A stretch of DNA of 27,104 bases from Escherichia coli (GTDB lineage: Bacteria; Pseudomonadota; Gammaproteobacteria; Enterobacterales; Enterobacteriaceae). Positions 19,208 to 24,695 of the stretch are shown one piece after another; the first letter of the stretch is position 1; the number at the start of each line of letters is the position of its first letter. The stretch is from assembly GCF_003334385.1 (NCBI RefSeq), contig NZ_QOWN01000059.1; one strand, 5' to 3'. The translations under genes and the position numbers were made by a program. The notes below the pieces were generated by a model, which did no database searches, was not told the origin of the DNA, and was given only the letters and a program-made list of their open reading frames with translations.

Positions 19208-19897
19208 TTAAATCTTTGTTCGCTGATAATCAGCAGAATCAATTAAATTATACATACCATTCATATCATGCTCATAATGATATTCAGATTCATACGAATA
19301 CCCCAATATACTCTCATAAGTCAAAACGACCCGAAAATGTTCAGGCACATCTCCAGCATTTATTTTATTTTTAGGAAATTTAATTGCGCCATTGCTACTT
19401 CTAAAAAAATGCGAGCTATATTCCCCGATAGGAGGGTCAAAAGTTAAGCTTATATTTTTCGCTGTTTTACCATCACTAAATACCGACCAATTATACTCAT
19501 ACTGTTCACCACTTTTAACTGACCATCCCAGATTCAACATATATAGATCAGGCTTCGTTTCTTTTTCTCTTTCCAGCCTTTCTGTCATGGCTTTGATTGA
19601 TTCATTTTCTAATTGCTGTTTAGAAACGGAAACCATCTCTTTATATTGTTCGACTGAGTTTTTCAACTCAGTGGCTTGTAACTTTAACGCTTCAGTATTT
19701 TGCTGTAGTTCTTTTTGTTGCTGTAAATACCCAAGCACAAGCCAAAAAAAGGCCACTGGGGAAAATGCACCAGCAAGAAAATCTCCAAACTCATTCCACG
19801 ACGTCATCTGGTTCAAATCAAGAACATGGATCGTAATACCTAAGCCAAAGAAATAAACGACACTAACTAAAACACCGCACCCAAAAATTCTCATCAT
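19208..19897 (-). CDS. Hypothetical membrane protein with coiled coil (moron)
   Basis: Visibly AT-rich ORF with two hydrophobic helices at the N-terminus, a coiled-coil stretch (QQQKELQQNTEALKLQATELKNSVEQYKEMV...) and a Tyr/Glu-rich C-terminal domain. Start placed at the ATG preceded by GGGGAGAGA; the track ORF extends to 19921. Confidence 0.55.
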   Translation of the reverse strand: MMRIFGCGVLVSVVYFFGLGITIHVLDLNQMTSWNEFGDFLAGAFSPVAFFWLVLGYLQQQKELQQNTEALKLQATELKNSVEQYKEMVSVSKQQLENESIKAMTERLEREKETKPDLYMLNLGWSVKSGEQYEYNWSVFSDGKTAKNISLTFDPPIGEYSSHFFRSSNGAIKFPKNKINAGDVPEHFRVVLTYESILGYSYESEYHYEHDMNGMYNLIDSADYQRTKI

Positions 19898-19945
19898 TCT
19901 CTCCCCATTTGGAGAAAACATTTAACAACTGTCAAATAGTCAAGG

Positions 19946-20870: not shown

Positions 20871-21197
20871 TTACTCCTTAGAGCCACCAAACTTGTTACC
20901 GATTACTCTCATTGCAGCCCCACGAATAGCATCGACACCGATCAGCCCCACCCCACCACCAATGGCAACAGATAGTGATTTAGGCCATCCGACATACTCA
21001 AGAGCGGATGCAAAAGTCAGCGTCAGAGCACCACAGAGCAAAATCTCGAGCGTTTTTCGCTTCCAGCCACCACCACCGCCAAAATAGGCAATGCGCAAGC
21101 CAGCCATAACGATCGACATAATTACTGCGCCCAGCGGCGTGTCTCCACGCCACCAGCTCTGGACCAACTCCAGCCAGGTATTTGGGTTATGAGGCAT
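20871..21197 (-). CDS. Holin (putative)
   Basis: 108-aa hydrophobic protein with two to three predicted transmembrane segments, immediately upstream of the endolysin with a 4-nt gap. Confidence 0.6.
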   Translation of the reverse strand: MPHNPNTWLELVQSWWRGDTPLGAVIMSIVMAGLRIAYFGGGGGWKRKTLEILLCGALTLTFASALEYVGWPKSLSVAIGGGVGLIGVDAIRGAAMRVIGNKFGGSKE

Positions 21198-21337
21198 TTG
21201 TAGTTATCTCTCACCTCGCCGATACAAGAGGTGCAAATTGAGGGAGTACCACGAACCGCAAATCAGAAGCGGAAACGTAAAAGAAGCCGAGCCAATGGAT
21301 AAGAGCTAGATAGACCAAGCCCAACGAATACCAAAGC

Positions 21338-21371
21338 CCAGAAACGACAAAACCCGCTCAATGGCGGGTTT
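21338..21371 (-). terminator. Candidate tR'-type intrinsic terminator in the late leader
   Basis: On the minus strand: stem AAACCCGC, loop CAUUGA, stem GCGGGUUU, then UGUCGUUUC; about 70-100 nt downstream of the candidate late promoter and upstream of the holin. Confidence 0.4.
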
Positions 21372-21416
21372 AAGCTGTGTGGCGAAGTAACCACTCTTAA
21401 CATAATACAATACTTT

Positions 21417-21445
21417 TTGCGTACGCGTTAATAATTCTATATTAT
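21417..21445 (+). promoter_or_regulatory. Candidate sigma70 promoter of the ATPase-methyltransferase operon (TTGCGT-N17-TATTAT)
   Basis: Plus-strand hexamers at 21417-21422 and 21440-21445, about 30 nt upstream of the GTG start at 21476. Its -10 overlaps the -10 of the divergent late promoter. Confidence 0.35.
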
Positions 21446-21470
21446 ACAAGAAAAACAAGCTGGAAGACAA
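21441..21470 (-). promoter_or_regulatory. Candidate Q-dependent late promoter (pR'-like): TTGTCT-N18-TATAAT, with a second -10-like TAGAAT just downstream
   Basis: Minus-strand hexamers at 21465-21470 (-35) and 21441-21446 (-10), followed by an intrinsic terminator and then the lysis genes. Confidence 0.35.
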
Positions 21471-21475
21471 TTAAA

Positions 21476-23254
21476 GTGAGTGAAATCAGAAAGTTAAAAG
21501 GGCTAATGAATACAAATGCTATTGAGCCGTTCATTCGCCATATACGGTTTCCGTATTTTAAAAATCTTGAAGAATATAGCACTATACATTTTCACTATCC
21601 TATTACTGCATTAGTTGGTCAAAATGGAACCAATAAAAGCTCAGTATTACGTGCATTATATGGTTCTCCAAATAATTATTCCTTAGGAAATCTTTGGTTT
21701 TCAACTGATCTAGACGAGATTAAAGATGGTGGTCGTTCTAGATTTATTTATGGATACTATGATTCCGCATCTAAAGATGTTGTTGAAGTAATAAAAACAA
21801 GGATTGTAGACAAGGAGGATCCTGATTTATGGGAAACTTCGAGACCTCTAACTAAAGATGGTATGAAAAAAATACCAACAGATATTATTTCGCCAAATCA
21901 GCAAAAATCACGCTGGAAACAGATAGACAAAATTGTCACATATATTGATTTTAGAGCTTCGATCAGTGCATTCGATAAATTCTTTTATCATTCGGACTTT
22001 GATCTTTATCCAAAGAAAAATCACCTGAGAAAAAGAAGCCATCTTCTTAAAGAGATAATAGATAAAGGCCTAACATCATACAAGCCCTTTAAAGGTAAAA
22101 AAGAAAGGTTGTATAAGAATGAATTACTTTCTCAAGAGAAGGTAGAAATCATCAGCGATATACTTGGTAGACCTTACAAAACAATTAGACTTATTGAGCA
22201 TGCCTTATTTACAAACAATAAGGCTTCAACCGTTATTTTAGAGTCTCATAGTCTCAACTACTCCGAGGCTTTTGCAGGAAGTGGGGAGTTTGCAGTAACT
22301 ATTCTCGTAAATCAAATTGTTAACGCGCCAACAGCATCATTAATTCTTTTAGATGAACCCGAAGTCTCACTTCATCCAGCAGCACAGTTTAAATTGATGT
22401 CTTTTCTAAATAAGATTTGCTTAAAAAACAAACATCAAATTGTTATTTCAACACACTCATCATCTATAGTTAGCCAACTACCTAAGGAAGCCATAAAACT
22501 TTTTAATCTTAATTCAAACTCAGGAAAAGTTAGTATAGTTGAAAACGTTAGCCCTGAGGAAGCTTTCTTTACGCTTGGAGACCGACTATCAAAAAAAACT
22601 ATCTTTGTAGAAGATAAACTGGCTAAAAAATTCGTTGAGAAGGCTTTAAAATCAGGAGGTCCTGCCCTAGCCAATACATTTGATGTTATATATTGCCCAG
22701 CTGGTGCAAGCACATTATTAGGTAATATGATTGTCTCATTATTTTTATCAAGAGTTGATAATGCGGTATTTTTATTGGATGGTGATCAGAAGACAAGCCA
22801 TGATTTCATTACATCAGCCTTAATACCAAGCAGTGAAGATAATTCTTTAAATGAAAAAATAAAAAATATTCTTGGGTGTGAAATTAAAATACCAACTGAT
22901 GGGCATGGTGGAACTCCAAATAAACAGCAGAAGATTCAACTTCAGCGTGATTTCATTGATTTTTCATATAATTATGTAGGGTATTTACCTATCATTAATC
23001 CAGAAACTTTTTTGATTGACAATCTTCCGGCTTTTTACTCCGATATGATTAAAGATTTAAACTTATCAAAACTATCACCAAAATCAATAATTGCAGAAAT
23101 ATGTAAAAGAGACATAGAAAATAACGTTATAACTTCGGATGATATTTTCGCAACACAAATCAGGATACTAACCCGAATACCTGAGAATCATGTCGCATTT
23201 TCTGAAACGAGAGAAATGCTGAAATTTTTCCTTGAACATGGTAAGATAAGATAA
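21476..23254 (+). CDS. ABC-type ATPase with C-terminal TOPRIM-like nuclease domain (OLD/PARIS/Gabija-like architecture)
   Basis: 592-aa ORF. Walker A GQNGTNKSS (residues 48-56), Walker B LILLDEPE (289-296), H-loop ISTHS (324-328), then TOPRIM-like FVED (E379) and LLDGDQ (D435, D437). Visibly AT-rich. Start may be the GTG at 21476 or the ATG at 21506. Confidence 0.7.
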   Translation: MSEIRKLKGLMNTNAIEPFIRHIRFPYFKNLEEYSTIHFHYPITALVGQNGTNKSSVLRALYGSPNNYSLGNLWFSTDLDEIKDGGRSRFIYGYYDSASKDVVEVIKTRIVDKEDPDLWETSRPLTKDGMKKIPTDIISPNQQKSRWKQIDKIVTYIDFRASISAFDKFFYHSDFDLYPKKNHLRKRSHLLKEIIDKGLTSYKPFKGKKERLYKNELLSQEKVEIISDILGRPYKTIRLIEHALFTNNKASTVILESHSLNYSEAFAGSGEFAVTILVNQIVNAPTASLILLDEPEVSLHPAAQFKLMSFLNKICLKNKHQIVISTHSSSIVSQLPKEAIKLFNLNSNSGKVSIVENVSPEEAFFTLGDRLSKKTIFVEDKLAKKFVEKALKSGGPALANTFDVIYCPAGASTLLGNMIVSLFLSRVDNAVFLLDGDQKTSHDFITSALIPSSEDNSLNEKIKNILGCEIKIPTDGHGGTPNKQQKIQLQRDFIDFSYNYVGYLPIINPETFLIDNLPAFYSDMIKDLNLSKLSPKSIIAEICKRDIENNVITSDDIFATQIRILTRIPENHVAFSETREMLKFFLEHGKIR

Positions 23255-23280
23255 ATTTTAGATTATTATAGAGACAGATC

Positions 23281-24315
23281 ATGAAGAAAAAAATCAAAGT
23301 TTTTGACTTCTTTTCAGGATGCGGGGGAACAAGCAAAGGCCTTAAAGAGGCTGGGTGCGAAATTTTCTTCGGTCTCGATTATGATTATGACTCTGGTCAA
23401 ACCTTTCAGGCAAATAATCCTGATGCTATATTTTTTAATGAGGATATACGCTCCGTTAAGTTAAATGATTTATTTCAGCTTGTAAAAAAAGCGAAGCAAG
23501 ACTCACATGTTTTGTTTTGTGGTTGTGCTCCATGTCAACCGTTCTCAAGGCAAAATAAAAATAAAAGCAAAGAAGATCCTCGAAGAGGATTATTAAACGA
23601 ATTTGGTCGTTTTATCGAGTACTATTGTCCTGATTATGTACTGATAGAAAATGTTCCAGGATTACAAAAAGTTGATATTAACGATGGACCATTGCATGAT
23701 TTTATAACTCTTCTGAAAAAGAAAGATTATAATTTAGCTTATGGTGTGATTCCCGCTTTATGGTACGGAGTGCCTCAAACCAGAGAGCGTTTTGTTCTTA
23801 TGGCCTCACTTCATTCCCCAATCCATCTACCAGAGCGCACGCATAATGGCGAAGATATCCCATTTGCGACGGTAAGAGATTGGATCGGAAATATACCACC
23901 AATTGAGGCAGGTGAATCACATCCTACATTACGAGATCATGTTAGTGCAAAACTCTCTGCTTTAAATCTTAAAAGAATTAAAGCAACGCCAGAGGGTAAA
24001 GGTCGAGAGTTTTGGCCTAAAGAGTTGTTACTTGAATGTCATAAAAACCATACAGGTCACAGCGATGTATATGGCCGATTAGCATGGGATAAACCTGCTA
24101 GTGGATTAACTACAAGATGCATTAGTTACTCTAACGGAAGATTTGGCCATCCTGAGCAACACCGGGCAATTTCTGTTCGCGAGGCTGCACTGCTACAAAC
24201 ATTTCCATTGGATTATATATTCATCGGTTCAATGCTTTCTAAAGCTAAACAAATTGGTAATGCAGTCCCACCTAAAATGGCGGAGTCTATAGGGCATGTT
24301 TTTATGAATATTTAG
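23281..24315 (+). CDS. DNA cytosine-5 methyltransferase
   Basis: 344-aa ORF with C5-methyltransferase motifs in order: FDFFSGCGG (motif I), GCAPCQPFS (catalytic Cys85), LIENVPG, QTRERF and QIGNAVPP. Starts 26 nt after the ATPase gene. Confidence 0.9.
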   Translation: MKKKIKVFDFFSGCGGTSKGLKEAGCEIFFGLDYDYDSGQTFQANNPDAIFFNEDIRSVKLNDLFQLVKKAKQDSHVLFCGCAPCQPFSRQNKNKSKEDPRRGLLNEFGRFIEYYCPDYVLIENVPGLQKVDINDGPLHDFITLLKKKDYNLAYGVIPALWYGVPQTRERFVLMASLHSPIHLPERTHNGEDIPFATVRDWIGNIPPIEAGESHPTLRDHVSAKLSALNLKRIKATPEGKGREFWPKELLLECHKNHTGHSDVYGRLAWDKPASGLTTRCISYSNGRFGHPEQHRAISVREAALLQTFPLDYIFIGSMLSKAKQIGNAVPPKMAESIGHVFMNI

Positions 24316-24335
24316 CTGGAGCGTAAGCTCCAGCT
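24314..24335. terminator. Hairpin between the convergent methyltransferase and Q genes (possible bidirectional terminator)
   Basis: 9-bp stem AGCTGGAGC / GCTCCAGCT with loop GTAA, immediately after the methyltransferase stop and before the Q stop. No strong U-tract on either strand. Confidence 0.3.
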
Positions 24336-24338
24336 TAC

Positions 24339-24695
24339 CTATAACATTGACATTACTCCCTCAACAAATCCCAAGGCGGATTGCAAATCCTTCCGGATAG
24401 TCCCGTCCGAACATTTCCGCTTCTTTGCAATTGTGCGGAGTGAAATACCTATAACAAAGTGAACAATGAGCAGCTCAAACTCATCTGGCTTATACTTTCG
24501 TAACCGAGCCACACAACTGTCTACCATAATACCTTCGTCATCATCACACTGAATCCGGGACTTTTTGCCATGAGGTAAAAGCCCCTTAAAGCCAGCGGCT
24601 ACCTGTTGCCAATCCACACCACTGTTTTCTGCCGCAGCCCATGCCCCCCAGCGGTCCAAAACTTCATACATATCACGCATCAACTTTCTCCACAA
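24339..24695 (-). CDS. Late gene antiterminator Q (QuuD/phage 82 type)
   Basis: 118-aa ORF resembling recalled E. coli QuuD (VLDRWGAWAA...AAGFKGLL...SRIQCDDDEGIMVDSCVARL...CSDGTIRKDL). Confidence 0.7.
   Translation of the reverse strand: MWRKLMRDMYEVLDRWGAWAAAENSGVDWQQVAAGFKGLLPHGKKSRIQCDDDEGIMVDSCVARLRKYKPDEFELLIVHFVIGISLRTIAKKRKCSDGTIRKDLQSALGFVEGVMSML

Follow-up and report, generated by a model that had tools for sequence, protein, structure and literature searches.

The DNA analysed here is a 27,104-nucleotide stretch of Escherichia coli (NCBI RefSeq assembly GCF_003334385.1, contig NZ_QOWN01000059.1), referred to below at its full length as the window. The gene under study, M, occupies positions 23281–24315 on the plus strand and encodes a C5 DNA (cytosine-5) methyltransferase of 344 amino acids with an ATG start. 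It starts 26 nucleotides downstream of a gene on the same strand, A (21476–23254), which encodes a 592-residue protein with an N-terminal ATP-binding cassette (ABC) ATPase of the SMC/Rad50/OLD-like type containing two inserts, a C-terminal OLD-type TOPRIM nuclease domain, and a helical tail. The window contains one methyltransferase gene and one ATPase-TOPRIM gene. Taken by itself, M is an ordinary enzyme; the interest lies in its pairing with A, which across bacteria is linked to C5 methyltransferases in a near-obligate, one-way manner.

M is a real, intact C5 DNA methyltransferase in which all of the catalytic motifs occur in order on the translated plus strand. Motif I (FDFFSGCGG, residues 8–16, 23302–23328), which binds S-adenosylmethionine, is followed by motif IV with the catalytic cysteine (P84-C85-Q86, 23530–23538), motif VI (E123-N124-V125, 23647–23655), motif VIII (Q166-T-R168-E-R170, 23776–23790), motif IX (R-A-I-S-V-R-E-A-A-L-L-Q-T-F-P, residues 295–309), and motif X (Q-I-G326-N327-A-V-P-P, with G326-N327 at 24256–24261). 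In an alignment of M relatives, G15 and G16 of motif I are invariant among the 56 partner methyltransferases, and PCQ, ENV, QxRxR (Q166, R168, and R170), and GN are kept in 56 of 56. The Pfam model PF00145 (DNA_methylase) covers residues 5–339 (E = 6.9e-55), TIGR00675 (dcm) is matched above threshold (138.2 bits against a cut-off of 100.65 bits), and the PADLOC model MTase_II matches with E = 6.8e-86. The identical gene is annotated at NCBI as WP_063083632.1, 'DNA cytosine methyltransferase', and the nearest solved structures by sequence are the catalytic domains of DNMT1, followed by bacterial enzymes. Much of the initial annotation of this gene is upheld by these results. The core motifs were described as complete and ordered, as the translation and the matches to PF00145 and TIGR00675 confirm, and the enzyme was called probably active, a view that the intact motifs, invariant in the partners, support from sequence alone. 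The variable, target-recognition region downstream of motif VIII was placed at about residues 160–320, which is close to the span of approximately 172–294 given by the motif boundaries. The reported lack of a vsr partner agrees with a search of all window open reading frames (ORFs) of at least 40 amino acids, in which a profile derived from 12 vsr genes of related loci found no match. Likewise, no small or classical type II restriction endonuclease was found in the window, where the ATPase-TOPRIM gene adjoins M and the remaining flanking genes are phage genes; a classical type II restriction-modification system was rejected because no endonuclease of a known family is adjacent.

As for the target of M, an 82%-identical Klebsiella protein carries the submitter name 'Modification methylase HgiDII', which is an automatic name transfer. 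Relatives of M at 41–42% identity adjoin endonucleases of the BbrUII/HgiDII family. The name and these neighbours make GTCGAC a lead only; the sequence occurs three times in the window and zero times in the island formed by the two genes, numbers too small to inform on specificity.

Both architecture and fold make the partner protein A an OLD-family nuclease. Its ATPase head, which resembles the repair ATPases Rad50, SMC, and RecF and is matched by Pfam AAA_21 and AAA_15, contains a Walker A motif (G48-Q-N-G-T-N-K54-S-S, 21617–21643, plus strand), a Walker B motif (D293-E294-P-E296, 22352–22363, plus strand), and, downstream of the latter, the H-loop residue H327. The C-terminal region (residues 356–592, 22541–23251, plus strand) has a TOPRIM fold in which E379-D380 ends strand 1 and D435-G-D437 ends strand 3, with P509-E510 and K536 also conserved. 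In an alignment of 69 A-family proteins, the Walker A and B motifs, the H-loop, E379-D380, and D435-G-D437 are unchanged in all 69 (G48, N50, G51, K54, D293, E294, P295, and H327 being invariant), as is K536. A thus combines the features of the OLD family, namely an ABC ATPase with Walker A, Walker B, and H-loop and a TOPRIM domain with a conserved Glu and DxD. A sequence search of the PDB with the A-family profile detected the Walker B region alone (E = 1e-10 to Thermus OLD), so a fold comparison was required to establish the TOPRIM domain. The best PADLOC match is HEC-04 (E = 1.1e-34), which covers only residues 208–445 of 592; a retron-type ATPase-Toprim model also matches in part, and REase_II models are absent from the 25 best PADLOC matches. 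No NCBIfam model matched at its cut-off, and PHROGs places A in a family of unknown function. At E ≤ 1e-30 the family comprises 756 representatives of 50%-identity clusters, and among the best 150 of these nearly all are full-length (approximately 570–650 amino acids), a few are truncated, and none is fusion-sized. The sequenced phage collection contained no relative of A, and the plasmid collection contained one distant relative.

The pairing was surveyed by scanning one genome per species with the A-family alignment, which resulted in 79 loci, 68 of which contain a true family member (34–51% identity to A). A C5 methyltransferase ORF is present at 63 of these 68 loci, and the loci come from at least 10 phyla (Proteobacteria, Actinobacteria, Firmicutes, Bacteroidota, Acidobacteria, Nitrospirota, Planctomycetes, Verrucomicrobia, Patescibacteria, and Melainabacteria). 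The two genes abut or overlap in 47 loci, with A preceding M in 29 and M preceding A in 18, and they lie on the same strand in 45 of the 47; in the remaining 16 paired loci, one or two genes separate them. The five loci that lack M include no clean exception: in four, the contig end cuts the locus or leaves it uninformative, and the fifth is rearranged and degraded. As a control, 11 more distant ABC-ATPase relatives were recovered in the same scan, none of which has a C5 methyltransferase nearby. Viewed from the methyltransferase, all four sampled relatives of M with 58–69% identity (from Hafnia, Burkholderia, Massilia, and Stutzerimonas) have a gene for an AAA_15/AAA_21 protein of approximately 590 amino acids directly upstream.

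The dependence between the two genes runs in one direction. Only 3 of the 79 closest viral-contig relatives of M carry A, and approximately 20 phage methyltransferases at about 40% identity to M stand alone; taken with the census, these solitary enzymes indicate that the M fold can do without A, whereas A does not turn up in the absence of a C5 methyltransferase. Disruption of A beside an intact M, by a nonsense codon, frameshifts, or an insertion sequence (IS), was observed in five loci (L009, L062, L069, L070, and L071), and an intact A beside a disrupted M was observed in none of the census loci. Such one-way dependence is what a toxic nuclease and its antidote would show. Because the catalytic residues are kept in every partner methyltransferase, methyl transfer, and not the mere presence of the protein, appears to be needed; together with the invariant ATPase and TOPRIM residues of A, this places the activities of both proteins under selection. 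One of the five disrupted loci, from Acetobacter pomorum, carries an IS-type transposase inside the A gene (L069, 2556–3370) with the downstream methyltransferase intact.

Distant relatives of A that have no methyltransferase partner (L072–L074, 28–30% identity) do not contain profile positions ~82–156. Members of the methyltransferase-linked clade have this insert, with many of its aromatic and charged residues invariant (W74, F75, T77, D80, E120, and R146), and it is a candidate for a clade-specific function. The distant relatives are located in defence islands: the one in L072 lies between hamB of the Hachiman system, a gene of the GmrSD-like kind, and a gene for a type I methyltransferase, and the one in L073 is followed by a PD-Lambda-3_B homologue.

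Within the window, A and M form a two-gene island of low guanine-plus-cytosine (GC) content (33–36%) at positions 21437–24338, between the Q antiterminator gene (24339–24695, minus strand) and the late-promoter/holin region (holin, 20871–21197, minus strand). The surrounding lambdoid, P27-like prophage has a GC content of 52–58%, and the island genes are transcribed against the direction of the phage genes. Window positions 21200–21436, approximately 240 base pairs by the holin, are matched at about 96% identity in other E. coli prophages, which diverge beyond this point; this marks the island as inserted between Q and the region of the late promoter. Upstream of the holin, at 21350–21470 on the minus strand, a pattern scan made a weak call of two promoter-like sites with a GC-rich hairpin and T-run behind them; the scan is uninformative in this region, its count of promoter-like sites being no higher than expected from shuffled sequence. 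The same positions are conserved at about 96% identity in hundreds of E. coli prophages and probably represent the late promoter with a short terminated leader, bounding the island on the left.

The identical A–M pair was found in 10 of 5426 complete E. coli genomes and a second allele, in the same prophage slot, in eight more (18 of 5426 in total); the A and M proteins of the second allele are 60% and 67% identical to those of the window, respectively. That the two alleles differ in both genes fits co-inheritance of A and M, as does the correlation between their pairwise identities given below. Its occurrence on two prophage types indicates that the cassette moves between phage backbones. In E. 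coli strains C4 and G1/2 (L002 and L003), the second allele occupies the Q-side slot of these two different prophages, one of which is P27-like and the other of which has adjoining tRNA genes and a truncated methyltransferase fragment. Prophages of Arsenophonus and Hafnia carry the pair in the same Q–holin slot as the window, and in Microbulbifer, Burkholderia, Massilia, and Stutzerimonas the pair stands alone amid housekeeping genes. The pair is thus an autonomous mobile two-gene unit, and its patchy, rare occurrence is typical of mobile defence genes. A putative defence role is supported by context, comprising the prophage moron slot, the low-GC island, the patchy distribution, and the relatives in defence islands. 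Among proteins of related architecture, IbfA, Gabija, PARIS, and P2 Old are defence nucleases, and phage defence by HEC-04, a stand-alone ABC-ATPase-TOPRIM protein, requires the Walker A lysine and the TOPRIM acidic residues.

Given these observations, we favour, with a probability of roughly 55%, the reading that A and M constitute one functional, two-gene restriction-modification-like defence cassette carried as a prophage moron. In the mechanism that we propose, M would mark the lysogen's DNA, as well as that of the phage itself, with 5-methylcytosine (5mC), and A would be an ATP-dependent OLD-type nuclease that is harmful unless the mark, or M itself, is present. Unmarked incoming DNA would be attacked by A, and loss of the cassette could expose the host chromosome too. 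We infer that A cleaves DNA and that methylation blocks this cleavage; for discrimination, A would more likely use M as a specificity module in the manner of type III systems, the alternative being that it senses C5 methylation generically while moving on DNA. A broader proposal is put forward more tentatively, and we consider it less likely than not: A may represent a widespread class of OLD-type nucleases, with hundreds of 50%-identity clusters, that tell self from foreign DNA via C5-cytosine methylation without reading the methylated sequence. Any C5 methyltransferase encoded alongside could then serve as an exchangeable specificity subunit, or 5mC could be sensed generically by the conserved, clade-specific insert of the ABC ATPase (~residues 80–156). 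If true, this would add a fifth class to the four gene contexts of OLD nucleases and give restriction-modification a new architecture.

Several observations weigh against the cassette as one restriction-modification-like unit. First, a classical type II endonuclease is encoded between M and A in 16 loci and just beside the pair in two or three more, and there A is not needed as 'the' restriction enzyme. The intervening enzymes belong to an HpaII-like endonuclease family in eight loci and to the BbrUII/HgiDII family of GHKL enzymes in four; five Bacteroidota loci have a large GHKL protein together with a protein of 550 amino acids, and one further family occurs elsewhere. Second, the A protein of L047 is 66–68% identical to those of L046 and L049, although their methyltransferases are only 23–25% identical and belong to different subfamilies. 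These three loci, all from Lachnospiraceae/Roseburia bins, differ by a recent partner swap. Third, several OLD-family TOPRIM nucleases cut tRNA and not DNA (PARIS AriB; P2 Old, 2026 preprint). Fourth, the pattern scan of the plus strand upstream of 21476 shows no promoter-like site for the cassette. Finally, the frameshifts counted in metagenome bins could be assembly errors, and the correlation between the pairwise identities of A and M (r = 0.51, reached by 0 of 2000 Mantel permutations) may partly reflect shared host phylogeny.

The occurrence of near-identical A proteins with unlike methyltransferases argues against A being a simple cognate, sequence-specific restriction enzyme. The partner swaps and the intervening endonucleases together tie A to C5 methyltransferases as a class rather than to one recognition sequence. 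Since related A proteins accompany unrelated methyltransferase subfamilies and 16 loci have an intervening endonuclease, A itself probably does not read the target sequence, and the swaps suggest that it either leans on M for site recognition or senses methylation generically. The gene orders around the swap are Vsr, HpaII-type methyltransferase, HpaII-like endonuclease, and A in L046 and L049, and Vsr, window-type methyltransferase, and A in L047. The five Bacteroidota loci (L030–L032, L038, and L042) share a conserved four-gene variant in which the large protein, of approximately 1000 amino acids, has two GHKL/histidine-kinase-like ATPase modules and the second intervening protein, of 550–600 amino acids, has no family match.

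The intervening endonucleases also bear on the alternative that survives best, which we nevertheless regard as unlikely. In this scenario A would be a latent suicide nuclease, possibly a tRNase, silenced either by binding of the C5 methyltransferase or by normal methylation. It would be set off when the methyltransferase or the restriction system is inhibited, titrated, or bypassed by a phage, much as PrrC works with the EcoprrI type I enzyme and as PARIS responds to anti-restriction proteins. The add-on-like position of A next to complete type II systems, counting both the 16 loci and the two or three with an endonuclease beside the pair, is consistent with such a role, and the tolerance of A for swaps of methyltransferase subfamily is what one would expect if A recognised the conserved catalytic core and not a DNA sequence. 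In addition, HEC-04 is toxic on induction, and the known ABC-ATPase-TOPRIM systems P2 Old, PARIS, and IbfA act by abortive infection, some of them by cutting tRNA. However, a pure scaffold or bait would not need the catalytic residues that all 56 partner methyltransferases have kept. No recognised endonuclease family is found next to the pair in 45 of the 63 M-containing loci, and the flanks that were checked consist of housekeeping or phage genes, so the window has no restriction system to guard. Nor does this scenario explain why the partners are C5 methyltransferases only and never N6 enzymes. PrrC is itself a latent nuclease with an ABC-ATPase-like domain tied to restriction-modification, being a HEPN-type anticodon nuclease in a type I (N6-adenine) system; A would share the ABC-ATPase head and the genetic tie, and a guard role for A is an analogy only.

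A further possibility, which we consider improbable, is that A is not a defence protein but a Vsr-like companion that handles damage caused by C5 methyltransferases, such as T:G mismatches arising from 5mC deamination or trapped covalent enzyme–DNA adducts. The association of A is indeed Vsr-like, as in dcm-vsr, in that an accessory nuclease occurs only beside C5 methyltransferases, whatever their specificity, subfamily, accompanying endonuclease, or gene order; M occurs without A and A does not occur without M, and the resemblance of its ATPase head to Rad50, SMC, and RecF would suit a repair function. Yet Vsr itself (TIGR00632, above the cut-off) coexists with A in 12 of 63 loci, so A is no replacement for it, and A as a Vsr substitute was rejected as the main interpretation on this ground. 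The two proteins are therefore not interchangeable. Vsr is a 150-amino-acid PD-(D/E)xK-like mismatch nickase, and the window lacks it. Were A a dispensable repair factor, it would moreover be expected at times to outlive the loss of M, which was never seen in the census, while residence in a low-GC mobile island within a moron slot of only 18 of 5426 E. coli genomes is a hallmark of defence or selfish genes and the characterised relatives of A are all defence nucleases.

The weakest explanation is that M serves the phage alone, in protection from host restriction or in gene regulation, and that A is an unrelated stand-alone defence gene of the HEC-04, IbfA, or class 1 OLD type that lies nearby by chance; solitary phage methyltransferases at about 40% identity to M and stand-alone ABC-ATPase-TOPRIM defence genes do exist, but this is very improbable given that the pairing is kept at 63 of 68 loci with no clean exception among the other five, that A is upstream of all four sampled close relatives of M, that the two genes travel as one insertion and co-vary, and that the HEC-04 match of A is partial. 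The suggestion in the initial annotation that M could be an orphan anti-restriction methyltransferase is accordingly not sustained, as the ATPase-TOPRIM gene is a conserved partner across phyla. Its other suggestion, that M is the modification half of an unusual pair, holds as genetic linkage and is plausible as function. The implication that A is 'the' cognate restriction enzyme needs qualifying in view of the type II endonucleases between the two genes in 16 loci and the pairing of A with unrelated methyltransferase subfamilies.

Among characterised systems, the restriction-modification-like cassette probably works most like type III or ATP-dependent type II-like restriction-modification, by analogy and with an ABC-ATPase/TOPRIM engine. 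In type III Mod/Res systems, and in CglI and NgoAVII, which have C5 methyltransferases, the methyltransferase marks self and an ATP-using nuclease subunit is non-specific or partner-dependent; these systems rely on superfamily 2 (SF2) helicase-type motors and PD-(D/E)xK or phospholipase-D nucleases. In contrast, the motor of A is an ABC ATPase and its nuclease a TOPRIM domain. The TOPRIM acidic residues of A have a spacing identical to those of HEC-04, whereas HEC-04 and IbfA are shorter (approximately 495–520 amino acids), act alone without a methyltransferase, and do not have the conserved N-terminal insert of the A family. A was not assigned to HEC-04 or IbfA because of the partial match and because its gene is not solitary. 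OLD nucleases have been divided by gene context into class 1, which is solitary (P2 Old and Thermus OLD), class 2, with a UvrD/PcrA helicase (Gabija GajA), class 3, with a retron reverse transcriptase (the retron Eco8 effector), and class 4, with split ATPase and nuclease (PARIS AriA/AriB) (2023 OLD review). None of the four has the C5 methyltransferase partner that is constant in the A family, and A fits no class. In two Betaproteobacteria (L025, 8782–11694; L037, 2845–5853), the direct neighbour of the pair is a UvrD/PcrA-like helicase whose C-terminal part is a Cas4-like nuclease domain, a layout reminiscent of GajA–GajB in Gabija; such a helicase is adjacent in only 2 of the 63 paired loci.

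Three other candidates were examined and rejected. WonAB of Vibrio cholerae consists of an OLD-type ABC ATPase and a PD-(D/E)xK nuclease with no methyltransferase, the OLD-like gene of the PluTI element is paired with a helicase in the Gabija arrangement, and the methyltransferase-linked MORC/paraMORC systems have GHKL ATPases, which are represented here only by BbrUII/HgiDII-type endonucleases between M and A. PADLOC v2, NCBIfam, Pfam, and PHROGs hold no model or name for the A–M pair, no description of it was found in the searchable literature (a coverage that excludes REBASE and the ABC-ATPase classification of Krishnan et al. 2020), and neither the 2023 OLD review nor the 2026 OLD preprint mentions methyltransferases. 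The pair is thus probably an unnamed restriction-modification-like defence and a new gene context for OLD nucleases.

For one branch of the OLD nucleases, a family in which self-recognition is for the most part unexplained, the pair would offer a simple, testable answer, namely methylation. If the restriction-modification-like reading is true, an ABC-ATPase/TOPRIM engine would join the known restriction-modification architectures, and the annotation of 'orphan' C5 methyltransferases beside 'AAA family ATPase' genes would change in hundreds of genomes. For the host strain, the cassette would imply that a second pattern of 5mC exists and that the prophage brings with it a barrier against superinfection and DNA uptake. 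As a compact two-gene cassette, A–M can be cloned for direct work in E. coli.

Besides the A–M island, the window contains a second patch of low GC content (approximately 40%) that holds an ORF of 237 amino acids (19208–19921, minus strand) between an Rz-like lysis gene and the HNH/terminase genes. Its product has predicted hydrophobic N-terminal segments and matches PHROG 9267, of unknown function. The second-allele prophage of L002 has a different small gene at this site, which may therefore be another variable moron slot. A third dip (39%, window positions 6001–7000) lies among the tail genes and contains an ORF of 176 amino acids (6245–6775, minus strand) that matches PHROG 5485, also of unknown function. 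The Hafnia prophage that carries the pair encodes, in its early region, a 754-amino-acid fusion of a C5 methyltransferase domain and a Dam domain (L164, 7444–9708), and it therefore has a second, separate C5 methyltransferase.

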